Positions 34,133-55,067 of a DNA stretch of 64,000 nt are shown here, piece after piece. Source of the stretch: an uncultured virus (IMG/VR IMGVR_UViG_3300001765_000045) (lineage: Duplodnaviria; Heunggongvirae; Uroviricota; Caudoviricetes); IMG/VR virus record IMGVR_UViG_3300001765_000045, one strand, 5' to 3'. The translations under genes were made by a program, and so were the position numbers. Each line of letters begins with the position of its first letter. Within the stretch, counting starts at the first letter, position 1. The notes under the pieces were generated by a model. It saw only the letters and a program-made list of their open reading frames with translations, did not search any database and was not told where the DNA came from.

Positions 34133-34762
34133 TTAAATTTTGTCTTCTTTAATTTGCTTTAAAATAGCTTTTCTAACAACTTTTTCAATACCAGGAAATG
34201 CATCATATATCCCAGGTATCAACTTATGTCTAACTTTGTTTCTTAAACAATAGTTGATATCTATATTACTGGGATCGGTGATATACGTTAGTTTGTGATA
34301 ATTTGCATAATCAATTATTTTCTTTTTAGGAAGAAGTATAAATGGTCTATATACATTACCACTCGCATACCGCATAGGTCTTGCATTACCTTGCATAGCT
34401 GTCATGACATACCATTCGACAGCATCATTAAGATGATGACCAGTTACAACTGGTCTATCCAAAGACTGGAATATAGTATTTCTTTGTCTACTCCAGAATG
34501 ATTCTTTGCTAGTAGATCCGTCAAATGGGTCAATGACCTTTACAATGTATTCTACATCATACTTTAATGCAATTTCTTTACAAAATAGAATTTCCTCCTG
34601 TGAAAGTTTATCTAAATGATCTATTACCACAAGTCTGATATCTTTTCCACGAGTTTTTAAATAGTGAAAAAGTACCATGGAGTCCATACCACCGGAAAAA
34701 GCTATATACAACTTATCCGGTAAGGTATGAATATATCTAAGCTTCGGGGGTTGCATAATCAA
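34133..34762 (-). CDS. tilS: tRNA(Ile)-lysidine synthetase, catalytic domain only
   Basis: PP-loop AFSGGMDS, TGHHLNDAVE, RP, DPSN..LRNKVR. Confidence 0.88.
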   Translation of the reverse strand: MIMQPPKLRYIHTLPDKLYIAFSGGMDSMVLFHYLKTRGKDIRLVVIDHLDKLSQEEILFCKEIALKYDVEYIVKVIDPFDGSTSKESFWSRQRNTIFQSLDRPVVTGHHLNDAVEWYVMTAMQGNARPMRYASGNVYRPFILLPKKKIIDYANYHKLTYITDPSNIDINYCLRNKVRHKLIPGIYDAFPGIEKVVRKAILKQIKEDKI

Positions 34763-35053
34763 TTATTTTCTCTTTAAAAGATGTTTGCTTCGATTATATA
34801 CTGAATGGATTATCACAATCATAGATAACCCGTAGACTAACATTGCTACTAATGCAGCTAATGCTGTATAATAATCTCCAAATACTACCACCAATGTTAA
34901 AAAAGCTATGACACCAATTATAGTGCTAGCAAAATTAGCTGCATAAAATGCTGCTACCATCACTCCCCCCATCAAAATACCTGTATAACTTAAAACAGCC
35001 ATCAAAAAGAATAACCCTAATAACATCATACCAGTTATTAAAAAGAATACCAT
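34763..35053 (-). CDS. Small membrane protein
   Basis: Hydrophobic 96-aa ORF behind leader copy B. Confidence 0.7.
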   Translation of the reverse strand: MVFFLITGMMLLGLFFLMAVLSYTGILMGGVMVAAFYAANFASTIIGVIAFLTLVVVFGDYYTALAALVAMLVYGLSMIVIIHSVYNRSKHLLKRK

Positions 35054-35145
35054 GATATTTCTCCTGAATAGATTAGCTTCGTTACCATTAACGATTGACT
35101 ACTATTCTCACCTATAGTATATATGACTGATTTTTTATAGAAAAA
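35054..35145 (-). promoter_or_regulatory. Promoter + stem-loop leader + RBS module, copy B
   Basis: TATATACTATAGGTGA-GAATAG..TCGTTA-ATGG-TAACGA..CTATTC-AGGAG. Confidence 0.8.
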
Positions 35146-35210
35146 TGTGTATAAAATAATATATTCAACATAGGTCCTTAAAGACCTATGTTGAATATTC
35201 TTTTTTTTGT

Positions 35211-35723
35211 TTAGTTCTTAACATATCTTAAATGTTTATAAGGTTTTTGTAGTATTGCTTTAACTAAAGCACTTGGAGTATGTACTTTACCTATATCTAT
35301 ATTCTTTAAATTTAAAAAATATTCTACTAATTCAACACATATCCATTTATTATTTTCTTTAGAATTAAGTTTTAAATAAGCTTTAATAGCTTCTAATACA
35401 CTATAAGACTCACCTATTTTCTTAAATAGCAATCCAAGATCTTCTTCAGTTACAGTTAAATCCATAGCTATATGATAAAAATCGCTTTTTTTTATTAATG
35501 GTGTTATTTTAACTTCAGGTACTTGGGCTTCTATTAAAAAATGTCTACCATTAACAACCCAAGCTATACCTAAATGACTATATTCACTCATAGTAAATAA
35601 TCTTACTATATATGAAAATAAACTAGATATATCTTTTAGTTTAACAGAAGAAAAAACAATAATATCACCTGTTTTAATATTATCTACATAACTCATGTAT
35701 TCATTTGTCATAATAATCACCAA
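35211..35723 (-). CDS. Permuted papain-like NlpC/P60 (YiiX/YaeF-like) amidase
   Basis: KTGDII, YSHLGI, ICVELV, TPSAL motifs. Confidence 0.75.
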   Translation of the reverse strand: MVIIMTNEYMSYVDNIKTGDIIVFSSVKLKDISSLFSYIVRLFTMSEYSHLGIAWVVNGRHFLIEAQVPEVKITPLIKKSDFYHIAMDLTVTEEDLGLLFKKIGESYSVLEAIKAYLKLNSKENNKWICVELVEYFLNLKNIDIGKVHTPSALVKAILQKPYKHLRYVKN

Positions 35724-35920
35724 TCTTCTTTTAATAAAGGTGTTTCAGATGGTTGGTTATTAATCTTAATAATTTTATCAGTTACTGTTAATTTATTTAG
35801 GTGGCTGAGATTATTATGTACATGTCCATCACCTGTACCAGTATCAGATATTTGTTTAAGAGGATCTATATTAGTTAATCTATTATTTGAAATAGTTCGA
35901 GTAAAGTCTAATAGTTTCAT
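35717..35920 (-). CDS. Small tail-associated protein
   Basis: HVHNN..LNKL..W ending shared with ORF 36452..37012. Confidence 0.55.
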   Translation of the reverse strand: MKLLDFTRTISNNRLTNIDPLKQISDTGTGDGHVHNNLSHLNKLTVTDKIIKINNQPSETPLLKEDW

Positions 35921-35932
35921 AATAAAACCCTA

Positions 35933-36307
35933 TTAAAAACTACGTTCATCGTAACCATATAATCTATAAACAATATTAGGAGTATTACTTTGCATAAAAA
36001 CTATTTCATCTTTACTCATTGTAATAGGACCTCGTACATATGTAAGATTAGCATCTATACGTATCTTTGTTTCTAATATATCTTTACGTTCAGGTGTATT
36101 AGCATTAGATATCCATATAGTAACTTCTGACATATCATCTGAATCATTCGTGATATTTAAATATATATTTAGATACTCTGTATATTCGCTAGGTTTAAAA
36201 ACCCTAGTTAAATCTGTAGAATCTAGTACACCTTTAACAAGGCATCCATATCTATCCATTAAATCTTTTTGATCTGTTACTTTGATAGTACTTTGCAATT
36301 TTCGCAT
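35933..36307 (-). CDS. Hypothetical (tail module) protein
   Basis: 124-aa beta-rich ORF within the tail-like cluster. Confidence 0.6.
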   Translation of the reverse strand: MRKLQSTIKVTDQKDLMDRYGCLVKGVLDSTDLTRVFKPSEYTEYLNIYLNITNDSDDMSEVTIWISNANTPERKDILETKIRIDANLTYVRGPITMSKDEIVFMQSNTPNIVYRLYGYDERSF

Positions 36308-36451
36308 TTCGTCACTATATTCAGGAATAGGTATCTCAATCTTTAAATTGAAAAAAGTTCCTGTCCTTTTGTTAGTTAAGCTACAGAATGAATAAATTAA
36401 ACTACCAGAAGACTTTTCACAGTCTTTTGGTAGCCTAATACTGAATATATA

Positions 36452-37012
36452 TTACCAGTCAGTAGCACGTAAAACAGGATCAATAAATTCACTGTTATAC
36501 TTTATATCACCAGCATCTTCACTAAATTTATCTATAGTAGATTTATTAGCATGAACGTGGGTCTTACCAACAGCATCATCTATTTCAGCAACAGTAGAAG
36601 TAGGACGACCTATTATATCAGTCCAATTAATGACCAAGTCCATAGACTCGTGTTCAGAAATCTTTGTCCAGACAGAACCAGTTGGGTTAAAGACATAAGT
36701 AGCTGCACCAGCTGCAACAGTTGTATCACCAGTAGCATTAACAACAAGTGCTTGAGTAACAACAGCAGGAGCTAATGCATCACGAGCAGCTATGTCAGTA
36801 ACAACATACATATGGCTAGTACCAGCAACAGCTGTATTAACCATAGTTTGAATATCACTACGCGAAGGAAGACGACGAACAGCAGATCCTGCTTGATTAG
36901 AGATATACATCTCAGCAAAATCACCGTTTACATCTTTAACTAAATAAATAGTTGAACCAACAAAAGTACCAGGTAAAGTATTAACTTTAGCAAACTTAAT
37001 AGTTTCAGACAT
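36452..37012 (-). CDS. Putative tail-fibre-associated structural protein
   Basis: VVTDIAARDAL..ATGDTTVAAGAATY..WTKISEHESMD, a pattern recalled from phage structural proteins. Confidence 0.65.
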   Translation of the reverse strand: MSETIKFAKVNTLPGTFVGSTIYLVKDVNGDFAEMYISNQAGSAVRRLPSRSDIQTMVNTAVAGTSHMYVVTDIAARDALAPAVVTQALVVNATGDTTVAAGAATYVFNPTGSVWTKISEHESMDLVINWTDIIGRPTSTVAEIDDAVGKTHVHANKSTIDKFSEDAGDIKYNSEFIDPVLRATDW

Positions 37013-37067
37013 TTTACATCCTTAAAAAAATTGTAAAAATAATTTAATAAAATATTGGTTTACTAAT

Positions 37068-37613
37068 CTATACAAAAGCACTAGGATCAGTTTCCCAATT
37101 AATTAACATAATAGATTCTTTATTTATTTGTTGTTCAATTAATATTCTAAGTGCATGGAAATGTTGTAAATTAACTAGTTTAAATTGAGCACCAGTTATC
37201 ATTACATACCTTATTTGATTATGTGTGTGTTCTCTATAAATTTTTATTCCAGTTACTGGATCTCTACATGCATAATTAATAACATGTCCATCAGGGAAAT
37301 CTAGTGATGGTGAAGTTGCAGATACTGCACCTAATAGATTAATCTGGTCAACTTGTTCAGAATCATAGATATATGGTGTTCCTAATGCAACTGCAGTAAA
37401 ACCAGATACAATAATTTCTTCACATTTTTTAGATAATGCTTCAATAGCATTTTTTTTACTGAGAACTATACATTCTTGATCTAATTGTTCTTTAGTTATT
37501 TTTTCATTAGGATCTTCCCATACAATAGCTTCATAATCATCCATTTCTCCTAATGAATATGCGTTAATATTAGGGTAATTAATACTGATTAATTCTAGAT
37601 AATTAGTTATCAT
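37068..37613 (-). CDS. DUF4376-like tail fibre assembly protein
   Basis: GF..ALGTPYIYDS...DQINL..HTHNQI..INW pattern. Confidence 0.65.
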   Translation of the reverse strand: MITNYLELISINYPNINAYSLGEMDDYEAIVWEDPNEKITKEQLDQECIVLSKKNAIEALSKKCEEIIVSGFTAVALGTPYIYDSEQVDQINLLGAVSATSPSLDFPDGHVINYACRDPVTGIKIYREHTHNQIRYVMITGAQFKLVNLQHFHALRILIEQQINKESIMLINWETDPSAFV

Positions 37614-37630
37614 GTTTTTCCTAAAAATTA

Positions 37631-38350
37631 TTAAGCTAATAACATTTCTTTAATACTCCAAGAAGATATAACACCTCCTCCATAATTTCTATCAGTCCCA
37701 CGACCTAAATACCATGTTCCATTTCCACCTGCTATACCAACTCTGGCACTATAAGTTACATTAGCTAATGTGTTAGGTGTATCGATTAAATGCACTGATA
37801 CATCTCCGTAATAATTAATATTATCCCAATGTTGACCTAATGTTAAAAATGTATTATCTCTAAATATAGCTATTAAAGCACCTCTACCATTTGTTGATAC
37901 AGTACCTAAAATAGAAAAATCTATAACAAATTTAGAATCAATAGATTCTGGAGTAACTATTTGAGAAAATAACTGAGTACCTTGACTTATTAAAGGAGCC
38001 GTATTAGTCACATTTATTTGTGATGTCCCAGATATCTGAGCAATATTCCCATGATATATATTTCTAAGTACACTATTTCCATTATTAGATATATTTAAAA
38101 GTTCGTTAGGTATTTTACCATTGATGTCTAAACCAGCTATACCATTTGGCTCATTTATTATATCTGCTAGATAATTAGTAACCATTTGCATTATACTAGT
38201 AGAACTATGTGTGGTATATAATACATTACCATCAGTATCTGTTATAGCTAATGTTATTCTATCTTGTGTGTCTCTATATAAATATACAGAGTCACCCTGA
38301 AAATTACCAGGTGGACCATTTACTTTAAAAAATTTTAATTTTGAAGACAT
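37631..38350 (-). CDS. Putative tail fibre protein
   Basis: NGIAGLDINGKIP motif and beta-sandwich-like C-terminus (VTPESIDSK..VTYSAR). Confidence 0.6.
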   Translation of the reverse strand: MSSKLKFFKVNGPPGNFQGDSVYLYRDTQDRITLAITDTDGNVLYTTHSSTSIMQMVTNYLADIINEPNGIAGLDINGKIPNELLNISNNGNSVLRNIYHGNIAQISGTSQINVTNTAPLISQGTQLFSQIVTPESIDSKFVIDFSILGTVSTNGRGALIAIFRDNTFLTLGQHWDNINYYGDVSVHLIDTPNTLANVTYSARVGIAGGNGTWYLGRGTDRNYGGGVISSWSIKEMLLA

Positions 38351-38438
38351 TACTACTCCTTAATTTTAATCTATCGGAATCCAAAAGATTAAACATATTC
38401 CTGTCACTAATGTCAATATTAGTGACAGGATATTATAT

Positions 38439-40694
38439 TTATAGAGTACAAGAACCTCCAGAACAACCTTTGGCTAAATCAAGATTCTCTAATTTATTAC
38501 CTTTAGTAGTTTTACTATTAGTATAATATCTAGATTTGACTCCATACTTATACATATAGAAAAATTCATCTAGTAATCTAGATGATTTTAATTCTTTATT
38601 TTCTACCCTATCATTATAAAAATCCGCTGATATAGATTGATCTGTGAACTTTTGAATTACTCCATATACTTTACAAAGTTGTTCTGGAGTAAGATCCCAT
38701 ACTACTTGATATTTATTATATAACTCATCTGAATCTCTAGCAATGCTATCTATGGCGTTACTAGCATCCGTTTTCTTTAAATAGATAGCACGTATAGGAT
38801 AAACACCATTAGACAATCCTGTAGCCTTAGAAGAGGATTCAGTAGGCATATAAGATACTAAGGCACTATTACGTATGCCTCCATTATCAATAACTTCCTG
38901 TCTAAGTTTTTCCCAATCATACCTATATGAAAAATTAGAGATACTATCTACATTTTTATTATAAGTATCAATAGGTAACCAACCTTCAGGCCATTTAGTT
39001 TTATGGATCCATAAAGCATTACCTTTTTCTTTACCTAAACGTAATGATGCTTTAATTAAACTATATGTATGGCGTTCAGCCAGGAAATGTAAATGTTTTA
39101 GACCTTCATCATTAGTATAATTAAGATTATTTTTAGCTAATTCATGTGCTATGCCTATCATACCGACACCAGCATTCATACGTGCTTCAGCAGTTAATTT
39201 AACATGAGGGAATATATACTTATTTTTATGTATACACTTATCTATCATAAGAAGAGCATAATAAGCTATATCTTCATAATCATCATCTGTCTCTATAAAA
39301 GAAGGCACTATAGCCGCTAATGCACATAAACTAATTTCACCTTTACCATGGTCTATATCACTATATAGATCTACCATATTAGAATAAGCTGATGTAGGTT
39401 GAACTACTTCAATACAAAGGTTCGATTGGTATATAGTTTCTTTAAAGGATGTATGTGAATTTACTTCATCCATATTGATAAAATATAAAGTAGCTACTTC
39501 ATGTGCTTGTTTTAATGCAGTGATAGCTAATTCTCTAGCTGATACATAATTCTTTTTAAAGTTATCATCAGCTTCGTATTTAAAGTATAAACTACTAAAT
39601 AGTTCTACATTACCTGAAAAAAATGCTTTGTTAAGATCTGGGGCTGTATATATATTAAAAGTAAATATACTTTCATTATTATATACTTTTTTTACAAAAA
39701 ATGTATTAAACTGCATAGCAAAATGCAAATCTCTATTTTGTTTAGCTAGAGGTGTTCTAGGATTTTGTAAATATATTATATCTAATGCTTCTGGATCAAA
39801 ACATCCAAAGTACTGTGTACAAGCTCCACCTCTACTAGATTGCATATTAGCATTAATTGCTGAACCTACTGATTTAAAATAAGGGAGTTTACCCATATGA
39901 CGAATTGCACCATCTCTTACTTTATCATTAATACTTCTAGTATTAATAAATCCACCAATACCAGCTGACATATAGGTCATACTATATGCTATATGGTCAC
40001 CTATGGCTAAACTAGCAGCAGTATCATCTGTAGTATATAAACAACAACTAATATAACCATTATGTGTTGTACCTAAATTAACATAGTTAGGCGTTGGTGC
40101 ATTTAGTTTAGATTCACTAAGATATTTATAGAACTTTTTAACTTTTTCTATTTTATCTACTTCTTCATCTTCAGATAATGCCATAGCCATACGCATAAAG
40201 ATATACTGGGGTGTTTCATATAATATTTTATTAGTTTTATCTGATATCCCGTATTTATTTACTAAGTGATATATCTGAATATAACTAAAGTTATAATCTT
40301 TATCATGATTTACAATTTTATTTAATTCATCATATTCTTCATTAGTGTAATTAAGAGTAGTCATAAGATTAATATTAGCTAACTTATGGTGTTGTTCTTT
40401 CAGTGATAAAAAACCATTACTAAATATTTTTTTACCTATATAAGCTGCATATAGTCTACCTGCTATAAGAGTATGTAACCAAGTCATACGATTATTACAT
40501 TCGTCTATAAGCTTTAGCTGTATATCTTGTGTATTCATACCATCATAAAGTTGTTCTTTAACTTTGATAATAATATCTTTCCAGTCTATCTTACCTTTGA
40601 ATCCATCGCAAGCCCATAGTTCCCATCTCAATATTTTATTAATATCAAATTTCTCTATTTCACCATCTCTTTTAATTACATTTTTAATAGACAT
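38439..40694 (-). CDS. nrdA: Ribonucleotide reductase class Ia, alpha subunit
   Basis: ATP cone VIKRDG, ETPQ, PTP, SCC, SNLCIE, PTESSS, C-terminal CSGGSCTL. Confidence 0.95.
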   Translation of the reverse strand: MSIKNVIKRDGEIEKFDINKILRWELWACDGFKGKIDWKDIIIKVKEQLYDGMNTQDIQLKLIDECNNRMTWLHTLIAGRLYAAYIGKKIFSNGFLSLKEQHHKLANINLMTTLNYTNEEYDELNKIVNHDKDYNFSYIQIYHLVNKYGISDKTNKILYETPQYIFMRMAMALSEDEEVDKIEKVKKFYKYLSESKLNAPTPNYVNLGTTHNGYISCCLYTTDDTAASLAIGDHIAYSMTYMSAGIGGFINTRSINDKVRDGAIRHMGKLPYFKSVGSAINANMQSSRGGACTQYFGCFDPEALDIIYLQNPRTPLAKQNRDLHFAMQFNTFFVKKVYNNESIFTFNIYTAPDLNKAFFSGNVELFSSLYFKYEADDNFKKNYVSARELAITALKQAHEVATLYFINMDEVNSHTSFKETIYQSNLCIEVVQPTSAYSNMVDLYSDIDHGKGEISLCALAAIVPSFIETDDDYEDIAYYALLMIDKCIHKNKYIFPHVKLTAEARMNAGVGMIGIAHELAKNNLNYTNDEGLKHLHFLAERHTYSLIKASLRLGKEKGNALWIHKTKWPEGWLPIDTYNKNVDSISNFSYRYDWEKLRQEVIDNGGIRNSALVSYMPTESSSKATGLSNGVYPIRAIYLKKTDASNAIDSIARDSDELYNKYQVVWDLTPEQLCKVYGVIQKFTDQSISADFYNDRVENKELKSSRLLDEFFYMYKYGVKSRYYTNSKTTKGNKLENLDLAKGCSGGSCTL

Positions 40695-40696
40695 TG

Positions 40697-41815: not shown

Positions 41816-41968
41816 TGTGTATCCTTATTTTATCCAAAAAAAAATATACCCAGGGAAGATACCCCTGGGTATTTAAAATTCCATAAGATTCGGTCTTTAA
41901 AGATTTTTTTATTTTTATCCCAGGACTTCTATTGTTTCTTTTTTTGTTGTATAATCTTCAGACATTTA

Positions 41969-42181
41969 TTACTCCTTATCAAGAGATATATCTGACATAT
42001 CAATTACAAAAATATTACTATCAGGATGATAAATTTTCAGGAAATTAAGTTCGTGTTTTATAATTTTTCTCCATTTATTTCTTTGAAAAATACTAGATGG
42101 ATCAGAAGATCTTAGATTTTGTAAACAACATTCAATTGCATATTCCGACTTTTCTACTTCTGGTACATTTTTCCATGTCAT
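41969..42181 (-). CDS. Hypothetical protein
   Basis: 70-aa ORF behind leader copy C. Confidence 0.65.
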   Translation of the reverse strand: MTWKNVPEVEKSEYAIECCLQNLRSSDPSSIFQRNKWRKIIKHELNFLKIYHPDSNIFVIDMSDISLDKE

Positions 42182-42277: not shown

Positions 42278-42333
42278 GATTAAAAAAAATACCCCATGTA
42301 AACTTACATGGGGTATCGTAATATCTTCAAACA

Positions 42334-45611: not shown

Positions 45612-48600
45612 TTAATTATTTAACGTCATTTTTTTCATTTCATAAATAAGAGACTCTCTTATATCATATAATTCATTAAGACGTGTTAATGCTTCTTCAA
45701 TATAACCATTTGTACGAAGATGACATAATTCATCAGCTAATAGATGTACTTGTTCATGTAATTTATTAATAACGATATATCCGGATGTAAATCTATGTCC
45801 CGTTAGAAGTTCAGAATTTAACCATTTACCTAATAAACAATCTTTAGAATCCATGTCCATTAAAACTGTATTTTTACCTTTAATATAATCTATTTTATTC
45901 ATAATCCAGATACGGTGCTCTATTATAGCATGTAATATTTTCCGGTTATTATAACTTATTTCTTTACAATTTACCCAAGATGGTGGACTACTCCAGTTTA
46001 TCACCCATTCATGTATTTGATTACCTGGCATTGGTTTAGCAATACCATAACCTTGTGCCAGATTACAACCTAATTGTAGTAATACTTCACCATGTTCTAT
46101 TAACTCTACACCTTCAGCAATAACTGTACAATGAAAAGCATTGGCTAAATTAATTATACCTTCTAAAATAGATAAATCGTCTGCATCATTAAGCATATTA
46201 TAAACAAAACTTTTATCAATTTTGAGTATTTTAACTGGTAAACGTTTTAGATATGTTAATGATGAATAACCTGTACCAAAATCATCTAAAGAAAATATTA
46301 TACCTAAACTACGAATTTCTTCAATTAATGCAGATGCTCTAGCAATATCTTTTAATACAGTAGTTTCTAATACTTCAATTTCTAAATCACCTGAACAAGT
46401 ATCTGGATGCTCTATTAATAGTTTACGTAAGTATTGAACAAAATCTAATTGTTGCAATTGGATTGCACTGACATTAACACTAATTGGAAGTTTTAACCCA
46501 ATAGAACGCCAGATATCCATTTGAACTAAAGCAGTTTTGATAACCCATTTTCCAATTTCGGTTGCTAATGGATGATCTTCAATAACTTGTAAAAATGATA
46601 CTGGTCCTAATATCCCATTTTCTGGGTGATTCCAACGAATCAATGCTTCAACACCAATTACTACACCACTACGCATATTAACTTTTGGTTGATAATATAA
46701 TACAAATTCATTATTTGCTAATGCATTACGTATATGTTCAATTTTTACATTATTACCTCTCATATTACGATCAGTTATTTCATCAAATATATGATATCGA
46801 TTTTTACCAGTTAATTTAGCTTGATACATTGCTTGATCAGCTTGACGATATAATTGATCTGCATCAAGATTTTCTTCTTGTGGGTAAAATGTAACACCTA
46901 AACTAGCTGTTACATTTAAGAGAAATCCGTCAATAACTACTTGTTCAGAAACAGACATAAGTAAACGATTAATTATAGGAATACTATTTTGAATATTAAT
47001 TAAATCAACTAATACAATAATAAATTCATCACCACCAATACGAGCTAAAGTATCACCATCACGCATAATATTTTTCATTCGTGTCGATAATGAAATTAAT
47101 AAAGAATCACCTACTTTATGACCGTATTCATCATTAACTATTTTAAAACCGTCTAAATCAAGAAAAATTACAGCCAACATATTATTATGTCTATGTGTTT
47201 GAGATATTGCGTATTGTAATCGATCAGCTAATAATACACGATTCGGCAAATGTGTTAACATATCATAATGGGCAATATGTTCAAGATATTCTTGTTGTTT
47301 TTTAATTGAAGTAATATCAGAAAATAAACCAATGTAATTTTGAATACCACCATTTTCATCACATATAGAACTTATAGTTAATGTTTCTATAACTATCTGT
47401 CCATTTTTATGTTGGTTCCATATTTCCCCAGACCAATACCCTTTATTTAAAATATCTTTCCACATAGCGTCATAAAATTTTTTATCATGCTTTTTGGAAT
47501 TAAGTATACGTGGGTTCTTACCTATAACTTCTTCACGACTATAACCAGTGATATTAGTAAAAGCATTATTAACATCAAGAATATTAGCATTTAAATCTGT
47601 TATAGTAATGCCTTCACGCGCATGTGTAAAAACACTGGCTGCAAGACGCATAGCTTTTTCAGCTTTCTTTTGTTCTGTCACATTAGTCAAAATACAATGA
47701 GTGCGTAGAAAATTACCATTATTATCATAACTAATACGACCATTTACTTCCATTAATTTTATATCACCATTTTTACATTTAAATTCAAAAACTGGTCCAT
47801 TAACACTACCTTCATCTTTAAATCTAGGAAATTGGGTAGTAAATGAACAATTTGAATTAGTAGTAATAAAGTTATTAAATAGATAACCTATAACTTCACG
47901 CCGTTCATAACCTAATTGATTTAACCATTCTTGATTAATATCGAGAAATGAACCATCTATATTTAGAGATTGATAAGCTAATGGTGCTTGTTCAAACATT
48001 TCTCGAAATAAATGTTCACTCTCACGTAATGATTCTTCCATTTGTTTACGCTCGGTAATATTGATAATAATACCAAGATAACCTTGAATATTATTAAGTG
48101 GATCAAAAAGTGGCTCAGCATGCCCAGTGATCCATGTTATATTATCTTGTTTAGTCATAAAACGACATTCCCAATCCCAAGATATTCCAGCAGCAACTGC
48201 TGCATACCAACCATCAAATATTTTTTGTTTATCATCAGGATGCATTGTTTGACCCCAACCCTGTCCAAAAACTTTATCAGCTGATACTCCAGTTATTTCA
48301 CACCAACGAGGATTAACAAATATACAATCACCGTTTATATCTGTTTGAAAAATACCTACTGGTGAATGAGTAGTAATTATTCTATATTGTTCTTCACTTT
48401 TCCTTAATTTTTCTTCTGCTTTCTTGCGGTCAGTAATATCTTCACCAGCTGATAAGCTACCTATAATTTCACCATTTTTATTATAAATAACATTATTATG
48501 CCAAGCAATCAATCGTTCTTTACCACAGTTAGTACATACAGCATTTTCATGGTATTCTGAATTAGCTATATCACCTGACATTACTTTTTTAAATAACTCA

Positions 48601-48863
48601 CGCATTTTACTAATATCTGAAATGCTGGATATACATGTAAAAAACCAATCTTGACCAAGTAATTCATCTTCATTATAACCTAGAATTTCACAAGCTTTAC
48701 GGTTAACTAATGTAATTTGTCCTTTAGAATTAAGTGCAATAATCATTGCCTCTACAGTTTCTAAGATATTATTAGTACTATCATGTTCTAATTTTAAATC
48801 AATGACAGTTTGGTCATATTCATCAATATCAGAATTTATAGAATTTAACTTATTATTTTGCAT
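45612..48863 (-). CDS. PAS x4 - GGDEF - EAL - CZB c-di-GMP cyclase/phosphodiesterase
   Basis: D.LT.LPNR, DLDGFK, I-site RDGD, GGDEF, EAL, DDFGTGYSS, KIDKSF, EGVE, QGY; CZB pattern H..W..CLLGKW..H..VH. Confidence 0.95.
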   Translation of the reverse strand: MQNNKLNSINSDIDEYDQTVIDLKLEHDSTNNILETVEAMIIALNSKGQITLVNRKACEILGYNEDELLGQDWFFTCISSISDISKMRELFKKVMSGDIANSEYHENAVCTNCGKERLIAWHNNVIYNKNGEIIGSLSAGEDITDRKKAEEKLRKSEEQYRIITTHSPVGIFQTDINGDCIFVNPRWCEITGVSADKVFGQGWGQTMHPDDKQKIFDGWYAAVAAGISWDWECRFMTKQDNITWITGHAEPLFDPLNNIQGYLGIIINITERKQMEESLRESEHLFREMFEQAPLAYQSLNIDGSFLDINQEWLNQLGYERREVIGYLFNNFITTNSNCSFTTQFPRFKDEGSVNGPVFEFKCKNGDIKLMEVNGRISYDNNGNFLRTHCILTNVTEQKKAEKAMRLAASVFTHAREGITITDLNANILDVNNAFTNITGYSREEVIGKNPRILNSKKHDKKFYDAMWKDILNKGYWSGEIWNQHKNGQIVIETLTISSICDENGGIQNYIGLFSDITSIKKQQEYLEHIAHYDMLTHLPNRVLLADRLQYAISQTHRHNNMLAVIFLDLDGFKIVNDEYGHKVGDSLLISLSTRMKNIMRDGDTLARIGGDEFIIVLVDLINIQNSIPIINRLLMSVSEQVVIDGFLLNVTASLGVTFYPQEENLDADQLYRQADQAMYQAKLTGKNRYHIFDEITDRNMRGNNVKIEHIRNALANNEFVLYYQPKVNMRSGVVIGVEALIRWNHPENGILGPVSFLQVIEDHPLATEIGKWVIKTALVQMDIWRSIGLKLPISVNVSAIQLQQLDFVQYLRKLLIEHPDTCSGDLEIEVLETTVLKDIARASALIEEIRSLGIIFSLDDFGTGYSSLTYLKRLPVKILKIDKSFVYNMLNDADDLSILEGIINLANAFHCTVIAEGVELIEHGEVLLQLGCNLAQGYGIAKPMPGNQIHEWVINWSSPPSWVNCKEISYNNRKILHAIIEHRIWIMNKIDYIKGKNTVLMDMDSKDCLLGKWLNSELLTGHRFTSGYIVINKLHEQVHLLADELCHLRTNGYIEEALTRLNELYDIRESLIYEMKKMTLNN

Positions 48864-48917
48864 GTTAAACCACCTATTTATAATTCACCACAAAATAACA
48901 AAATTTTAAATAGAACA

Positions 48918-48943
48918 TCTACTTAGCTATTAAACTAGGTAGA
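48918..48943. repeat. Hairpin/terminator core, inverted copy of 45546-45571
   Basis: tctacttagctattaaactaggtaga. Confidence 0.75.
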
Positions 48944-49044
48944 TGTTCTATTCAACTATTTTTTATATAACTATTTACACTTTGTAGCATTTACACTATC
49001 TATAACAAAATCATATAATAGTTTAGCCATGTTACTAACCTTTT

Positions 49045-51084
49045 TCACCAATTGTTAAAAATACCTGATATAGGTATATTACTTAATTCACCAGATTCTA
49101 ATGCAACTGAACAATGTTCCATAGAAACAGATTCAGTTTCATCTAAATCATCACCACCTTGTATACCAACTATAGCATTAACTTGATCTTTAGACCATTG
49201 CATTATATCTATAGTACGACTACAAATATTAGGTTCAACTCCAGTTATTAGATTTAAGTTAAATATTCTAGTTTGTGTAGTAGATCCTAGTCTATGTATA
49301 CGAGCTATAGTTTGATCCATCACATACTGTCTAAATGGAGGATTAATAATAACCATAGTATCTGCCATGATCAATGGTACAGCTGTTGATAGTGACGCAT
49401 ATGTAGCTACTAAAGGATTAAATTCTTTCTTTTTCTCAAACTTATCTACTATACTAGGTAAATCTTTAGTATATATCCCATACACAGCTAATGGATTATA
49501 ATCTTGATTTTTAAGTGTTTTTAATATTTGATCTATAACTTCAACATATGTTGTAAATATAACAGTTTTCTTTTCAGTTGATTCTATATACGGTGAAAAG
49601 TCAAACTCTTTAACCATATCCCTAAAAGCATTAACACGTTTTCTAGTTAATATTCTACCTAAACATTCACCACGTACTTTTAGTTTAAGATATTTAACTA
49701 ATGTTTTAGCGTGGAGGAATTTTTCTTTATCTGTTCTATCAAGCATAGGAACTAATACTGTCTTCTCATAATTAGTACAGTACTTCATTTCGTCTGTTAC
49801 TATATATAGAGAACCTCTTTTATATGCTTTGATAATTAACTCTAAATTATCTTTATACTTATTAAAACTATTATGACCTTGTTTATCATTAAATGATAAT
49901 GTTTCTTTGTATCTATCTAAGATGCTATAAAAGAACTGTTTAGCTTCTGGTAATTCTTTCTCTAGTTCTTTTGTTCTAACTGTAGTAAATGCAGCCATTT
50001 CGTTAGCTATAGTAGTTAGAGTATAATCTTGCCCATTAGGTATAGTTACTTCTATATTACTATTGATAGGTTCTTTTAGATTCATTATCTTTTTACTAAC
50101 TTTATAACTAACTATATTATAACGACGACTTAGAACTTCTGTAGTAGCCTGTACTTCACCAGCAAACATCTTTTTAAAGGCTTCTAGGACCTCGTCAGTG
50201 AACAAAGGATCTATAGTCTTAAAGAGGGGTATGGTTTCAACACTAAGGGCCTTAATAGGGGTTCCTGTGGCGAATATGATTTTAGCATTTTTCAGTGAAT
50301 TACAGAAATCAATAAACCTAAGTGTTCTAAGAGATTTAATTTCATTAAGATTGTGTGACTCATCTAGAATGATAGTTACCTTTTTATCTTTTAACTTTTC
50401 AACTAAGTCAAAAGCATATGGGAGAGCTTCATAATGTATGACAGCAGCTTTTTCATCTCGATACGGTCTATCACTATCTTTACTCCAACAAGACTGTGGA
50501 TTCTTATACAGACCATTATTAGCTGGTGTATTAGCTATGCTAGCTACCCATACTCTATGAACAGCGGGCTTAGGACAAATTACAATTATATTATCTGAGT
50601 GTAAACATTCTGCTATAGCTAATGAGGTAAATGTTTTTCCTGTACCTGGGTCAGCTGCAAGCATCATACCGTTTAAATTATACCTAGGAATAGTATAATC
50701 AAACCTCTCCATAAACTTCTGTTGATAATCTAAAGGAGTAAAATGGAATTTCTTAAGCTGGTTATAATCTAATAGACTTGGATGATTAACTTCCATGTTA
50801 CGTAACCAAGTATTTCTAAGTAGTTCTTGTTTTATACCTAATAATGTTCTTTTAGAACTAATTAAACTATTGTCACTATTTAATAGAATATCAATAATAT
50901 GATATAATTCTAGTGCAAAAAAACTGTGTATACTAAAAGAGAAACTACCTGTTCTCTTAAACATATACTTATTAACTCTAGTAGTATTAAAGACTTTATA
51001 AATATCTTCTTGTATCTTTCTACTACTGATATAATCAACAGTTATAATATTACGATTTTCTCGAACAGTTGCTAACGTAAACAT
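49045..51084 (-). CDS. SNF2-like SF2 helicase
   Basis: DPGTGKT, DESH, ATGTP, QTIARIHRLG; C-terminal SME/ALE sites. Confidence 0.88.
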   Translation of the reverse strand: MFTLATVRENRNIITVDYISSRKIQEDIYKVFNTTRVNKYMFKRTGSFSFSIHSFFALELYHIIDILLNSDNSLISSKRTLLGIKQELLRNTWLRNMEVNHPSLLDYNQLKKFHFTPLDYQQKFMERFDYTIPRYNLNGMMLAADPGTGKTFTSLAIAECLHSDNIIVICPKPAVHRVWVASIANTPANNGLYKNPQSCWSKDSDRPYRDEKAAVIHYEALPYAFDLVEKLKDKKVTIILDESHNLNEIKSLRTLRFIDFCNSLKNAKIIFATGTPIKALSVETIPLFKTIDPLFTDEVLEAFKKMFAGEVQATTEVLSRRYNIVSYKVSKKIMNLKEPINSNIEVTIPNGQDYTLTTIANEMAAFTTVRTKELEKELPEAKQFFYSILDRYKETLSFNDKQGHNSFNKYKDNLELIIKAYKRGSLYIVTDEMKYCTNYEKTVLVPMLDRTDKEKFLHAKTLVKYLKLKVRGECLGRILTRKRVNAFRDMVKEFDFSPYIESTEKKTVIFTTYVEVIDQILKTLKNQDYNPLAVYGIYTKDLPSIVDKFEKKKEFNPLVATYASLSTAVPLIMADTMVIINPPFRQYVMDQTIARIHRLGSTTQTRIFNLNLITGVEPNICSRTIDIMQWSKDQVNAIVGIQGGDDLDETESVSMEHCSVALESGELSNIPISGIFNNW

Positions 51085-51090
51085 ATAAAA

Positions 51091-51627
51091 TTATTCCCAT
51101 TTAAAAATAATATTATCACTAAGTTTTTTTCTTAGGACATTTTTCCATGAATCTGTTGAGTTTATATAATTAACTTCATTTGTAAAATTATGTAAACCAG
51201 CGTCACTAAGTTTTACTATAGCTATATTTTTATGTGTTTTTATAAAATTAGTGGTAATAAGTTTTATCAATTCTTCTATTGAAAAATAAGGTCCATGGAT
51301 ACCTGTGTATTTATACCACGCCCATTCAAACCAATAATAATTATTTTTCTTGTCTTTATAAATAAGTGTGGAATGAGTAACTGTTTCAGAGTTATATAAG
51401 TTATTATTTGTCATATACAATGTTTGACAAATATAACCAAGTTTAGTTAGTTCTAAATTTGCTAATTCTGTAGTTTCCCAACAATGCCCGACTTTATCTT
51501 TTACAACCTGTTCAGGTGATCTTAAATAACCTTTATGCGCACCCTCATAGGTTAAATTTTTATTCATCCATTTTAATAAATCTTCTGGATTTTTACTCTT
51601 TGTTAAAAAAGACAGTATTGATGACAC
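51091..51627 (-). CDS. Transglutaminase-like cysteine protease domain protein
   Basis: SPEQV..GHCWE, HSTL, WFEW catalytic-triad pattern. Confidence 0.65.
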   Translation of the reverse strand: MSSILSFLTKSKNPEDLLKWMNKNLTYEGAHKGYLRSPEQVVKDKVGHCWETTELANLELTKLGYICQTLYMTNNNLYNSETVTHSTLIYKDKKNNYYWFEWAWYKYTGIHGPYFSIEELIKLITTNFIKTHKNIAIVKLSDAGLHNFTNEVNYINSTDSWKNVLRKKLSDNIIFKWE

Positions 51628-51730
51628 ATTATCACCTTAGTTAAAATATTAGTCCAATCTATTGCATAAGTGAATATATTACAACATCTCTAGGAAACCA
51701 TAAAGGTCCTAGAGATGTTGTAATATGTTT

Positions 51731-52216
51731 TTAACAATAGAATTTACTATATGTAACAAAATCAAATTTTAAATCTTCTTGTTGATTATTTATTCTTTTT
51801 CTTTCTACCCATCTATTTTTATCTATTTCTGGAAAAAAAGAATCACCGTCAAATTTAGCAAAGACTTCAGTAATGTATAAAACATCTGCATAGTTAATAA
51901 ATTCTTGATATACTTGTGCTCCACCGATAATATAAATGTCTTGTTTATTAGCTAAAGATAAAACTTCTGATTTATTCATGTAACGAAAACCGTCTTTTTC
52001 TTCAGGGTTATTTGTAAGAACTATATTATCCCTATAAGGTAACGGCTTCCCTTCTGTATATTCCATTATTGAATTATAAGTATTTTTTCCCATTATAATA
52101 GTTTTACTACTAGTTATACTTTTAAAATGCTTTAGATCTTCTGAAATATGCCAAAGAAGTTTATTATCTTTTCCAATAATATTACCTTCTGACATTGCGG
52201 CTATCATATAAATCAA
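51731..52216 (-). CDS. folA: Dihydrofolate reductase
   Basis: IGKDNKLLWHISEDLKHF, IMGKNT, PLPYRDNIVL, IIGGAQVY, GDSFFP; start placed at a TTG after the AAGGA RBS. Confidence 0.93.
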   Translation of the reverse strand: MIYMIAAMSEGNIIGKDNKLLWHISEDLKHFKSITSSKTIIMGKNTYNSIMEYTEGKPLPYRDNIVLTNNPEEKDGFRYMNKSEVLSLANKQDIYIIGGAQVYQEFINYADVLYITEVFAKFDGDSFFPEIDKNRWVERKRINNQQEDLKFDFVTYSKFYC

Positions 52217-52275
52217 ACTATTTTCCTTTAAAAAACAAAAAAATAAACCCATAACATGTATGGGTTTATTTAATA

Positions 52276-52686
52276 TTAATGAATATCTCTTACATATACA
52301 TTAAACTCATTATCTTCTTTGACATAGATTAGTACTTCTGTACTGACCAACTCGGTATCATCTAATATGATAGAAGCTTCCTCTATTGTGTTATACTCCC
52401 CATACTTAATATACAAATCTCCTTCTAAATAATATGTCACAAATTCATTATTATTCGATGGCGGCTCATTCATATTAGGTGTAACACATTCTTTTATGAA
52501 ATAATCAATACGATCTTCTAATTCATCTGTATTAGTATTATCTAACAAAGGTGAATCATAATATTCACTATACAACTTAAGAAAATAAGCACCAGGTGAA
52601 GTAGTTAACTCTATTTTAACTTCTTCAAATTGTCTGATATCTTCAATAATTTCTTCTGGGGTATATTTACTCATCGAATTTTCCAA
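52276..52686 (-). CDS. Acidic hypothetical protein
   Basis: ORF of about 130 aa. Confidence 0.6.
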   Translation of the reverse strand: MENSMSKYTPEEIIEDIRQFEEVKIELTTSPGAYFLKLYSEYYDSPLLDNTNTDELEDRIDYFIKECVTPNMNEPPSNNNEFVTYYLEGDLYIKYGEYNTIEEASIILDDTELVSTEVLIYVKEDNEFNVYVRDIH

Positions 52687-52760
52687 TATAACTATTTAAA
52701 TTGTTAAAAAAATATTAAGAGAACATTAGAACTAATTGTTTCTAGTGTTTTCTGCCGCAA

Positions 52761-53087
52761 TCAATTTTCGGCAATTAGTTTTTTAGCCAGATCATACTGT
52801 CGATTACCTTTTTCAAATAACCGATACGCTTCTAATAAATCTCCTTTATCTCTGGTTTCTCTAGCTAGTTGATGTAATCTTTCACCTTCTTTCTTATATT
52901 CCTCAATGTCTATATTTTTTAACTTTACACGGCGGATTTCGGCTGTATCTTCTGATGTATACACGATATTTCCTTTATTAGATAAATTAAACAAAAAACT
53001 TTGTTTAATGAAAAATAGTGGATTTATGAATCTGTTTATTATGTTCTTCAAGTAATAATATTCTACGTGAATTAGGAAAATATTCAT
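52761..53087 (-). CDS. Hypothetical protein (start uncertain)
   Basis: Helical C-terminal half; the N-terminus overlaps the upstream gene. Confidence 0.45.
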   Translation of the reverse strand: MNIFLIHVEYYYLKNIINRFINPLFFIKQSFLFNLSNKGNIVYTSEDTAEIRRVKLKNIDIEEYKKEGERLHQLARETRDKGDLLEAYRLFEKGNRQYDLAKKLIAEN

Positions 53088-53340
53088 TAATTTCTTTTTT
53101 TATTATTTCAAGTACCCTATCTTTAAATTCAGGATCAACTATTTCTATTGATTTATTACGATTTCTGACAGCTGTTAAACAAATAGCTAATGTTTGTTTA
53201 TGAACATATTTTAAAACCAAACCATTTATACTTACAGCATATTTACAAATATACTCAGATTGTTCAGTTATGTTTTTTAAATTTTCCGGATTTTTTCTAA
53301 TAAGAAATTTTTGCCAGTTTATATTTAATATATCAGACAT
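53005..53340 (-). CDS. DUF4116-like repeat protein
   Basis: EQSEYICKYAVSINGLVLKYVHKQTLAICLTAV repeat; AAGGAG RBS. Confidence 0.65.
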   Translation of the reverse strand: MSDILNINWQKFLIRKNPENLKNITEQSEYICKYAVSINGLVLKYVHKQTLAICLTAVRNRNKSIEIVDPEFKDRVLEIIKKEINEYFPNSRRILLLEEHNKQIHKSTIFH

Positions 53341-53377
53341 TTATATCTCCTTTTAAAAACAATATATTAAAAAAAAT

Positions 53378-53417
53378 ACATATACATCTAGAACAATAAA
53401 GTCTAGATGTATATGTA
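53378..53417 (-). terminator. Terminator downstream of the tRNA cluster
   Basis: acatatacatctaga/tctagatgtatatgt inverted repeat with a U-tract on the minus strand. Confidence 0.7.
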
Positions 53418-53447
53418 ATGATAAATACTGTTTATTTATTATTTTAA

Positions 53448-53522
53448 TGGTGGGACTGGTTGGGGTCAAACCAACGACCAAAGGATTATGAGTCCTCTGC
53501 TCTATCACTGAGCTACAGTCCC
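53448..53522 (-). tRNA. tRNA(CAT), Ile2-like, with encoded CCA
   Basis: GGGACTG TA GCTC AGTGATA GAGC A GAGGA CTCATAA TCCTT TGGTC GTTGG TTTGACC CCAAC CAGTCCC A CCA. Confidence 0.85.
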
Positions 53523-53627
53523 GTTAAACTTATTATCAATTAAATATAAATACTGATTATACGCTATCAGTAAACGTGAACTTTTTTATCGCGAGGAAGG
53601 AGATTCATAGTATTTACAGAACTAATA

Positions 53628-53699
53628 CGGAACTGATTGGACTCGAACCAATGACCAAAGGATTATGTGTTCTCTGCTCTACCACTGAGCTACAGTCCC
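53628..53699 (-). tRNA. Variant or pseudo tRNA(CAT)
   Basis: Paralog with canonical D and T loops but A33, an A30-C40 mismatch, G73 and no CCA. Confidence 0.65.
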
Positions 53700-53707
53700 G
53701 TTAAAAC

Positions 53708-53962
53708 CTATCCAACTTGATTACTTAAATGTGGTAGTTGTTGGCTATCTCTAAGCGCTACAACATTCCCATTTTTCTTCGCCAACTCTGTATAGCAGTT
53801 GGTTTTAATCAGCTCTTTTAATCTTCCGATTGTGTCTTTATCGGAAGATACTATTAACTGTAGAGTTGATGTATTCTCTACTAGAGAATTTACTACGGCT
53901 AACTGCACAGATTCCTGTTTCGTTGTGTATGTTGCAGAAAAAATCCTGGTAAACCAGTTCAT
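53708..53962 (-). CDS. Hypothetical protein
   Basis: 84-aa ORF, AAGGA RBS. Confidence 0.6.
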   Translation of the reverse strand: MNWFTRIFSATYTTKQESVQLAVVNSLVENTSTLQLIVSSDKDTIGRLKELIKTNCYTELAKKNGNVVALRDSQQLPHLSNQVG

Positions 53963-53988
53963 AATAAATCCTTTATTTAAAATCTAAA

Positions 53989-54339
53989 TTAACCGTAGAC
54001 AATTTTACCTACCGGAGTTAAGATAATTCCAGATAGCCATCCAAATGAATCAGACTCACCCCGGATAACTTTATAACCGGATAAAGCCAAAATTTCGTGT
54101 GCCGCATAAGCAGGTATACCTTGTGGCGTTATTAATTCGGAGTCGGCCAAATTAATAATCTCGTTATACAGCCGGGTGAAATCATCGTCACTTTCATTAT
54201 CCGGTTGCACAACTAACCAATTATGTCTTAAATTATTCGAAACCATTTCGCCATTACTGGCCTTACTGTATTGAAGGATTAACTCTATTGGGAGTATAAC
54301 CAATTTATCCAAACACTCAATTATTTTTTCAGTCGACAT
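53989..54339 (-). CDS. Hypothetical protein
   Basis: C-terminal GESDSFGWLSGIILTPVGKIVYG motif; GGAG RBS. Confidence 0.7.
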   Translation of the reverse strand: MSTEKIIECLDKLVILPIELILQYSKASNGEMVSNNLRHNWLVVQPDNESDDDFTRLYNEIINLADSELITPQGIPAYAAHEILALSGYKVIRGESDSFGWLSGIILTPVGKIVYG

Positions 54340-54364
54340 ATATTACTCCGTTATCAATCTAAAT

Positions 54365-54730
54365 TTTTGCAACCCATAAAACACTGACAAATAATATATT
54401 TGCAATGCTCTACAGGTTGAATACTAAATATTATTCCGACAATGGCAATAATATACCAGTAACAGCTTGTAGTAACAGTAATAATCAGTTACTGTTACTA
54501 CCGTACAGTTACAAAGGTTGATGAGACCTTATACATACACTGTAAGTATAGTGATCATCTAGTAATTTGACCAGGAAACCCCCGATCCAACTACATTACC
54601 AGACTTGATTAGGTATTGACATTATTTTAAAAGAAGGCTCTTCGTTACACTCGGGTAACCCTGCTAGAACTAACCGGTTGAACTCTATTTACTCAAACCC
54701 GTGGCAGGATTTAACTTTGATTTGAGTACC
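54365..54730 (-). ncRNA. Candidate structured ncRNA downstream of tRNA-Leu
   Basis: ORF-free, raised GC, many stems (TACTCAAA/TTTGAGTA, TCTGGTAAT/ATTACTAGA, GTAGTAACAGTAA/TTACTGTTACTAC). Confidence 0.45.
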
Positions 54731-54776
54731 TATCTTTACAAATTATGTCTTTACCAAATTTACTAAAGTACATAGG

Positions 54777-54858
54777 TGGGGGTAATCGGACTCGAACCGA
54801 TATACCTTGCGGCGAGGGATTTTAAGTCCCTTGTGTCTACCTATTTCACCATACCCCC
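54777..54858 (-). tRNA. tRNA-Leu(TAA)
   Basis: GGGGGTA..AGGGA CTTAAAA TCCCT, long variable arm, ATCGG TTCGAGT CCGAT TACCCCC A; followed by CCT rather than CCA. Confidence 0.9.
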
Positions 54859-54888
54859 ACCTATACACTCTACATTTTTATTACTTTA

Positions 54889-54990
54889 AAAAAATAGCAA
54901 TGGAGGAAACAGTAAAAACTTTTTAAACTAATAAAAATATTTTTTACTTAGTCTAATATATCAATACTGTTTCCTCCATTGCTATTTTTT
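54889..54990. repeat. Long perfect inverted repeat between tRNA genes
   Basis: aaaaaatagcaatggaggaaacagta / tactgtttcctccattgctatttttt (26 bp). Confidence 0.85.
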
Positions 54991-54992
54991 AA

Positions 54993-55067
54993 TGGTGGGA
55001 CTGGTTGGGGTCAAACCAACGACCAAAGGATTATGAGTCCTCTGCTCTATCACTGAGCTACAGTCCC
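54993..55067 (-). tRNA. tRNA(CAT), Ile2-like, identical copy of 53448-53522
   Basis: Same 75-nt sequence including CCA. Confidence 0.85.

Follow-up and report, generated by a model that had tools for sequence, protein, structure and literature searches.

A 64,000-nucleotide stretch of DNA from an uncultured virus of the Caudoviricetes (IMG/VR record IMGVR_UViG_3300001765_000045; hereafter the window) encodes a short lysidine synthetase, TilS, together with two identical tRNA genes with the anticodon CAU, in which the elbow pair G19:C56 reads A19:U56. We consider it likely that this mini-TilS, the pair of putative tRNA-Ile2 genes and a nearby tRNA-Leu gene form a phage module for decoding AUA and UUA, with an elbow swap that is tolerated and compensated. 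What can be read directly from the window and its relatives is the layout of the genes, the families to which they belong, codon usage, covariation and distribution; these observations are set out below.

In the mechanism that we infer, which takes in lysidinylation, isoleucine charging, expression and neutrality of the swap, the phage would supply its own tRNA-Leu(UAA), two tRNA-Ile2 genes and the mini-TilS to serve the codons AUA and UUA. The mini-TilS would convert C34 of the phage tRNA to lysidine, and the lysidine-bearing tRNA would be charged with isoleucine by IleRS and read AUA. The cassette position beside TilS would be taken by a crippled cloverleaf, with the working copies 19 kb away. 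The A19:U56 pair would act as an isosteric Watson-Crick substitute for the tertiary pair G19:C56, tolerated by the translation and processing machinery; it would have arisen once in the phage lineage and then have been copied with gene duplication.

A predicted TilS comprising the catalytic domain only

The gene for the mini-TilS is located as follows.

34133-34762, minus strand: mini-TilS, N-terminal PP-loop catalytic domain only, 209 residues from a TTG start

An alternative ATG start at 34756 gives 207 residues. The open reading frame (ORF) matches PF01171 at 1.3e-26 and scores 97.6 bits against the equivalog model TIGR02432 (lysidine_TilS_N), whose curated cut-off is 93.6; the QueC, LarE, TtcA and MnmA models come next, all far under their own cut-offs. 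PHROGs returned no family for the ORF at 1e-5. A sequence search of solved structures found TilS only, with only the N domain covered: residues 26-223 of 317 in 1wy5, 15-215 of 433 in 1ni5 and 22-217 of 464 in 3a2k. The protein ends at residue 209, and the C-terminal tRNA-binding domains CTD1 and CTD2 are missing.

An AlphaFold2 model built from 38 homologues has a mean predicted local distance difference test score (pLDDT) of 95. In a Foldseek search with this model, ranks 1-5 are TilS chains (1ni5, 2e21, 1wy5 and 2e89), with TM-scores of 0.74-0.80 for the query (TMq) and 0.40-0.52 for the target (TMt); the best match is 1ni5 (TMq 0.80, TMt 0.40), and the thiolases NcsA and TtuA, sulfur-transferring relatives, rank after the TilS chains. 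The motifs SGGxDS, HHxxD, RP, DxxN and RN are invariant in the 38-homologue alignment, and the PP-loop of the window protein is AFSGGMDS, at residues 21-28. By family and modelled fold, the 209-residue protein is a bona fide catalytic-domain-only TilS. The initial annotation, made from the letters of the window, had described it as such, and the TIGR02432 score above the cut-off and the structure matches restricted to the N domain bear this out.

The short form is shared by the wider family. A search of 5.8 billion proteins, over a length range of 114-366 residues, found 108 homologues, all of 181-306 residues and nearly all of about 200, several of them on contigs of 130-285 kb. A locus search with the single protein gave one weak locus; with an alignment as query, at least 488 of 550 candidate IMG/VR stretches were found to encode a mini-TilS relative.

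Two identical tRNA(CAU) genes with an exchanged elbow pair

We located the tRNA genes of the window with ARAGORN and scored them with the Rfam tRNA model. All five lie on the minus strand; they are listed here with an adjoining repeat.

34019-34090 (34018-34091 in ARAGORN), minus strand: tRNA-like cloverleaf; Rfam 37.2 bits
53448-53522, minus strand: tRNA(CAU) copy 1, probably tRNA-Ile2; ARAGORN, Rfam 68.9 bits
53628-53699 (53627-53700 in ARAGORN), minus strand: third, middle CAU paralog; Rfam 57.7 bits
54775-54858, minus strand: tRNA-Leu(UAA), with a normal elbow, fitting the codon UUA; ARAGORN (taa), Rfam 60.7 bits
54889-54990, no strand assigned: imperfect inverted repeat between copy 2 and the tRNA-Leu gene, with 49-nt arms that are 82% complementary (repeat I1)
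54993-55067, minus strand: tRNA(CAU) copy 2, identical to copy 1; ARAGORN, Rfam 68.9 bits

Copies 1 and 2 belong to 87 identical nucleotides (53442-53528 and 54987-55073) that include 6 nt of flank on each side. An assembly artefact was considered as the source of the duplicated tRNAs and rejected; the copies are identical, and the stretch recurs in the runs of other studies. The small ORFs between the tRNA copies have no Pfam match and so give no clue to the origin of the duplication. Scans for sigma-70 promoters around the tRNAs and TilS gave no signal above shuffles (terminators were scanned too). An exact 34-nt stretch of the tRNA had no match in IMG/VR.

The identical pair has the D loop AGUGAUA and the T loop UUUGACC, and the middle paralog, which is 79% identical to the pair, has AGUGGUA and UUCGAGU (all read on the minus strand). 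Comparison of these loops places the elbow changes exactly at G19 to A and C56 to U; the remaining elbow residues of the pair, G18, U54, U55, R57 and A58, are intact. Alignment with the paralog thus confirms what had been claimed at the outset, namely two identical tRNA(CAU) genes with a compensatory A19:U56. The pair also encodes CCA and has A73, G1:C72, G3:C70, C11:G24, U12:A23 and a G27.U43 wobble, and its anticodon loop, CUCAUAA, is a canonical loop of 7 nt, with CAU flanked by U33, A37 and A38.

The middle paralog had been put forward as a copy with the ordinary elbow. It does keep G19:C56, but it is damaged elsewhere: the invariant U33 is replaced by A33, the anticodon stem has an A30.C40 mismatch, G3.U70 and G73 are present, and CCA is not encoded. 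Rfam marks a non-standard pair in its anticodon stem, and it has a folding z-score of -1.4, where that of the intact copy is -2.7. G3.U70 is the main alanine identity element, here combined with G73 and A33. The gene at 53628-53699 is probably a pseudogene, a decaying copy and no working comparator. A contig of 275 nt from an RNA library spans it.

Two contigs outside the window, L342 and L344, encode a TilS that is 44-46% identical to that of the window and have a tRNA whose acceptor likewise starts with GGGAC and whose elbow is G19:C56; the anticodon arm is identical to that of the window tRNA in L342 and closely similar in L344. Because these related contigs and both in-window paralogs keep G19:C56, the swap in this phage lineage is, to judge by sequence, derived and was then duplicated.

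Identity of the duplicated tRNA and codon usage

A CAU anticodon is compatible with initiator tRNA-fMet, elongator tRNA-Met and tRNA-Ile2. In excerpts of Silva et al. (2006, PMC1635315), G3 or A3 together with C70 or T70 are said to rule out tRNA-Met and tRNA-fMet completely, as negative discriminators, and hence to point to tRNA-Ile(CAU), and the initiator is marked by A11:T24, G12:C23 and a C1 mismatched with position 72. The G3:C70 pair of the phage tRNA agrees with the tRNA-Ile discriminator of these excerpts. An initiator identity was rejected; with C11:G24, U12:A23 and G1:C72, the tRNA has neither A11:U24 nor a C1 mismatch. The same excerpts describe C4:G69 and C5:G68 as frequent in tRNA-Ile(CAU) and as determinants for E. 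coli TilS, and deny that they are universal. In the acceptor stem of the phage tRNA, C5:G68 is present and 4:69 is A:U.

Similarity points to the same identity. Among matches in 5,426 E. coli genomes, all of the top 8 listed are annotated as tRNA-Ile by PGAP, at up to 81.9% identity. In a joint alignment, identity to the phage tRNA is 72% for ileX, 79% for a mobile E. coli tRNA-Ile and 64% for metT. The G27.U43 wobble and the UGGUC variable loop are common to the phage tRNA and ileX and are not found in metT, and the CAU anticodon loop is likewise shared with ileX. We regard it as very likely, from these sequence features, that the two tRNA(CAU) genes encode tRNA-Ile2. The preference for Ile2 over Met, first drawn from resemblance to ileX-type tRNAs, is thus backed by G3:C70, by the lack of initiator marks, by the E. 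coli tRNA-Ile matches and by an identity to ileX higher than that to metT.

Codon usage was counted in the 59 ORFs of at least 80 residues in the window, which has a GC content of 29.6%. ATA accounts for 755 of 1631 isoleucine codons (46%; 44.7 per 1000 codons) and is the top isoleucine codon of the phage, in line with the frequency of ATA that had been noticed by eye; ATG stands at 24.5 per 1000. TTA is the most used leucine codon, with 752 of 1450 (52%). The carried tRNAs fit the two most AT-rich heavily used codons, AUA and UUA.

TilS and tRNA(CAU) cassettes in other phages

The best 80 TilS loci from IMG/VR were used for cassette counts. A tRNA(CAU) gene lies within 10 kb of TilS in 42 of the 80 and within 300 nt in 29, on the same strand in every one of the latter (29/29). 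Of these adjacent genes, 16 sit 7-40 nt downstream and 13 sit 19-188 nt upstream of TilS, and all 29 encoded tRNAs have G3 or A3. Since such physical coupling is otherwise hard to explain, it points to tRNA(CAU) as the substrate and offers strong comparative evidence that the short enzyme would work on the co-carried tRNA(CAU). Judged from these loci, the pairing of enzyme and substrate is a widespread, portable phage module.

Some CAU tRNAs near phage TilS have a long variable arm (83-86 nt in total length), which is unusual for isoleucine or methionine tRNAs. They occur in the IMG/VR loci L349 and L352-L354, where they adjoin TilS, and in L358, L368 and L406, where they lie about 0.9-1.0 kb away.

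In the window, the cloverleaf at 34019-34090 starts 42 nt downstream of the TilS stop codon, at the site where 16 of the 80 related loci have a tRNA(CAU) gene 7-40 nt downstream of TilS. The element has a cloverleaf fold and a canonical elbow, and in the D and T arms it is all but identical to the middle paralog at 53628-53699. Its anticodon loop has 6 nt, and ARAGORN reports it as 'tRNA-???' with a 2-base anticodon. In two lake-water assemblies, the 72-nt element has 4 substitutions, against about 0.4-0.5% in the neighbouring kilobases, and no loop insertion or deletion is listed. The element thus changes faster than its surroundings in the lake-water strains; three of the four substitutions fit the tRNA structure (C27 to U against G, G to A at R57, and one in the variable loop). 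An alignment of the seven closest viral loci revealed no conserved counterpart downstream of TilS. The cloverleaf is a paralog of the CAU family and is probably a decayed cassette partner or a non-decoding copy.

The A19:U56 pair in other viruses and in cells

We surveyed A19:U56 in other tRNAs, as the initial annotation had proposed; frequencies from these collection scans are bounds, not estimates. A first, looser D-arm pattern was discarded, 68 of its 84 pattern-bearing tRNAs being ordinary tRNA-Arg with G18, G19 and A20. The pattern then used on IMG/VR, GCTCAG(N)HGATAGAGC, gave at least 121 loci, of which 61 have a pattern-bearing tRNA and the rest are chance matches in non-tRNA DNA. Among the matches listed, 55 viral tRNAs have the D loop Y-G-A-U-A; scored by script, 52 of them have U56, or 53 if the mis-parsed T arm of L162 is read by eye, the exceptions being L142 and L175. 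A19 and U56 therefore co-vary almost perfectly across independent tRNAs, and the swapped viral tRNAs comprise at least 13 anticodon classes, among them Thr, Val, Gly, Ile-GAU, Lys, Ala, Met/Ile-CAU, Pro, Phe and Asn.

Samples drawn without regard to A19 gave a different picture. U56 is absent from all 46 CAU tRNAs of the best 80 phage TilS loci, each of which has C56, and from the full set of 118 distinct tRNAs, whatever their type, that those loci contain; every elbow in this set is canonical. It is also absent from the 65 distinct tRNAs of a second viral sample not selected for the D loop. Neither A19 nor U56 occurs in any of 238 listed viral and metagenomic tRNAs that share the 28-nt anticodon arm of the window tRNA. 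Pooled, the three samples contain U56 in 0 of 421 tRNAs, among the matches listed, and the per-tRNA frequency of A19:U56 in viral samples is probably below about 2%. The suggestion that the altered elbow suits the phage TilS finds no footing here: because U56 occurs in 0 of 46 CAU tRNAs near TilS homologues, the swap does not characterise the substrates of phage TilS.

The pair occurs in a cultured phage as well. Of 21 tRNAs of phage T5 that were read, one, tRNA-Ile1(GAU) (NC_005859, 28210-28286), has the same A19:U56, with D loop AGCGAUCUA and T loop UUUAAAU; its GenBank note says that the gene is convertible into a working suppressor. Unlike the tRNA(CAU) of the window, it has the anticodon GAU, for AUY codons, and in T5 there is no link to TilS. 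In cells, one genome from each prokaryotic species was scanned for an A19 D arm with a GTTTRANNC T loop; at least 120 loci were found, all of them real tRNAs. The cellular loci listed fall into these classes.

Gly(UCC): 66 loci
Ala(CGC): 25 loci
Gly(GCC): 18 loci
Thr: 9 loci
Gly(CCC): 1 locus
Met(CAU): 1 locus

The swapped tRNA-Gly(UCC) gene adjoins a tRNA-Tyr gene in cultured Bacteroides and Phocaeicola, and in some species the locus includes a tRNA-Thr. In Bacteroidales such as Bacteroides oleiciplenus, B. clarus and Phocaeicola sp., A19:U56 is fixed in this working housekeeping tRNA; being cellular and of another isotype, this tRNA demonstrates that a tRNA with the swap can lead a normal life and is silent on phage biology. 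To call G19:C56 universal, as had been done, was an overstatement, with A19:U56 a rare but regular alternative in T5 and at least 120 cellular species. Because the same swap is present in functional tRNAs of T5 and many bacteria, A19:U56 in the window is most likely a compensated change that is tolerated and has little special function, if any. A limited literature search found no mention of an 'A19-U56' pair.

Further CAU tRNAs with A19:U56 were seen in L253, a Nanoarchaeia metagenome-assembled genome, and in the IMG/VR contig L107. In L107, a neighbouring tRNA-Lys(UUU) has a near-identical acceptor stem and the same swap, which suggests that the swap there spread by duplication followed by anticodon change. 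In another contig with an A19:U56 CAU tRNA, L188, U56 occurs together with an apparent reversal of U54:A58 to A54:U58. Neither L107 nor L188 has a recognised TilS, an uninformative result for records that are 65% and 47% complete.

A different elbow variant was found in tRNA-Arg(UCU) genes of IMG/VR contigs. The D loop is AGUAGAUA in L018, L119, L195 and L212 and AGGAGAUA in L163, and the T loops begin with UGCAA, as in UGCAAAU, so that G18 is changed to A and U55 to G, with G19 and C56 kept. This is a possible covariation at the other elbow contact, G18:U55.

Comparison with known systems

Phage TilS, phage tRNA-Ile2 and the A19:U56 variant are each of an already-known kind. A phage TilS was first reported in 2019, for Pseudomonas phage MIJ3/PA5oct (Imam et al. 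2019, PMC6892783), according to excerpts of the literature, and TilS is also listed for Ralstonia phage RsoM2USA (PMC8504454). The MIJ3/PA5oct enzyme, like that of the window, is a short phage TilS in a tRNA-carrying jumbo phage, and the two are 30.7% identical over residues 17-203 (tblastn). In the excerpts of that paper, MIJ3 is reported without phage-nucleus genes, whereas the window encodes chimallin; the excerpts propose no partner tRNA, whereas the wider family of the window enzyme often forms a cassette with tRNA(CAU).

The catalytic fold and motifs of the mini-TilS are those of E. coli TilS (1NI5), Aquifex type II TilS (1WY5) and the Geobacillus TilS-tRNA complex (3A2K). Compared with bacterial TilS and tRNA-Ile2, the phage enzyme is without CTD1 and CTD2, and the phage tRNA is without C4:G69 and has a swapped elbow. 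A 2026 review (PMC13191261), as excerpted, places lysidine (k2C34) on a phage-encoded tRNA(CAU) of a T4-like vibriophage, where it serves AUA decoding, as we propose here. The passage leaves unstated whether the enzyme that makes the lysidine is of host or phage origin, and the term 'TilS' does not occur in the review.

The phage and its genomic context

The genes around the module place the window in a known group of large phages. One of them is given here with its coordinates.

22965-24803, minus strand: chimallin-like nuclear shell protein (PHROGs phrog_4795, 1.6e-78)

By PHROGs and Pfam, the window also encodes a split multisubunit RNA polymerase, in several pieces, and a ribonucleotide reductase (RNR), and by Pfam a divergent family B DNA polymerase (PolB; PF20286, 1.8e-192) whose closest counterpart in a collection of cultured phages is that of Bacillus phage AgentSmith (41.6%). 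The stretch is present in a microbial-mat run, possibly its source, and in lake-water runs of other studies (76-81% of sampled words). Because chimallin, a split RNA polymerase, RNR and a divergent PolB are present, the window is, on its gene content and its occurrence, part of a nucleus-forming, chimallivirus-like freshwater jumbo phage. If the phage makes such a nucleus, the tRNAs and the TilS mRNA would have to get out of it to work in the cytoplasm. A group I intron (RF00028, 79.1 bits, E 1.9e-18) lies at 20874-21171 on the minus strand and adjoins or interrupts the gene for the beta subunit of the split RNA polymerase, the upstream piece of which is the ORF at 21144-22400.

Alternative explanations

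Several observations weigh against a decoding module with a neutral elbow. The 4:69 pair is A:U, against the C4:G69 frequent in tRNA-Ile(CAU), and the call of Ile2 draws on identity rules and similarity. The mini-TilS is without both C-terminal domains that bind tRNA in solved TilS, and in the literature searched we found no assay of an N-domain-only TilS. In the window, 19 kb separate TilS from the intact tRNAs, against adjacent cassettes elsewhere. Contigs from RNA libraries cover the region in patches, the third paralog and flanking sequence of copy 2 among them, and they are possibly DNA-derived. A19:U56 is rare in the unbiased viral samples (0/118 and 0/65) and among tRNAs with the same anticodon arm (0/238), and its fixation and subsequent duplication in this phage could reflect selection.

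The last point leads to an adaptive account of the swap, which we hold to be unlikely: A19:U56 would alter recognition of the elbow or T loop by a host factor, such as a tRNA nuclease or a C56-dependent modification enzyme, and thereby protect or mark the tRNA. Escape of phage tRNAs from anticodon nucleases by sequence change is an established idea, and the phage has fixed and duplicated a swap that is seen in 0 of 183 distinct viral tRNAs and in 0 of the 238 listed with the same anticodon arm. C56 has a role in at least one T-loop modification, as a determinant for 2-thiolation of m5U54 in Thermus, in excerpts of PMC7912444. However, at least 120 cellular species have the swap fixed in housekeeping tRNAs, where evasion of defences would make no sense. 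To our knowledge, tRNA-targeting defences cut anticodon loops, not elbows. The elbow of the tRNA-Leu(UAA) of the same phage is normal, and PHROGs and Pfam scans recognised no defence or modification gene near the tRNAs. The earlier proposal that the elbow evades host defences has gained no positive support; with the same swap in Bacteroides, in other cells and in T5 tRNA-Ile1, such an account is unneeded.

Two further alternatives concern the tRNA and the enzyme. If the tRNA(CAU) genes encoded elongator tRNA-Met for AUG, the phage TilS would have a host tRNA as its substrate, or none at all. Such genes are indeed labelled tRNA-Met by ARAGORN and in most GenBank phage annotations, and both the A:U pair at 4:69 and the 19 kb to TilS would suit this reading; we find it quite unlikely nonetheless, for G3:C70 is reported to exclude Met and fMet (excerpts of PMC1635315), the nearest E. 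coli relatives are annotated as tRNA-Ile, ileX is closer than metT, ATA exceeds ATG in the codon counts (44.7 against 24.5 per 1000), and a TilS is encoded on the same contig, with TilS-tRNA(CAU) cassettes elsewhere. The 209-residue protein might instead be a PP-loop enzyme of TilS lineage that no longer makes lysidine, being inactive, acting on another substrate or depending on a partner. The loss of both C-terminal domains (TMt 0.37-0.52 against full TilS chains), the lack of a PHROGs family at 1e-5 and an NCBIfam score just 4 bits over the cut-off would fit this, but the catalytic-domain motifs are all invariant in 38 diverse homologues, the short architecture is seen in 108 of the 108 homologues found, and the gene is coupled to tRNA(CAU) in 29 of 80 loci, which makes the loss of lysidine synthesis very unlikely. 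We also considered a joint scenario, in which the N-domain-only TilS is a self-sufficient reader of the anticodon arm alone within a portable tRNA(CAU) cassette, the original tRNA has decayed and the A19:U56 elbow was selected. There, the cloverleaf with the 6-nt loop may have a non-decoding role, its decoding job having passed to the duplicated tRNA, and selection on the elbow would possibly have favoured evasion of a host factor that senses C56 or the elbow, or a means of telling phage from host tRNA. We think this combination highly doubtful. A related possibility is that an enzyme making no check of the acceptor stem would lysidinylate host tRNA-Met too.

The decoding module with a tolerated elbow swap accordingly remains our preferred reading. 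The AUA-decoding kit of the initial annotation stands as the best inference, in view of the TilS N domain, the Ile2-like tRNA, AUA as the top isoleucine codon and the cassettes in 29 of 80 loci; neither role that it had suggested for the elbow has support from the data.

Implications

In phages and in whole bacterial clades, A19:U56 occurs as a rare but regular variant whose two positions co-vary strictly, and by itself it is no sign of decay or of an arms race. The mini-TilS is common, with relatives in at least 488 IMG/VR stretches, and in many of these it is coupled to tRNA(CAU); it is without every tRNA-gripping domain of solved TilS. The mini-TilS is thus a compact test case for how a lysidine synthetase discriminates tRNA-Ile2 from tRNA-Met. 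If the decoding module proposed here is real, it would be a further case of a phage tuning translation to AT-rich codons, by carrying a tRNA plus the enzyme that gives it its identity.

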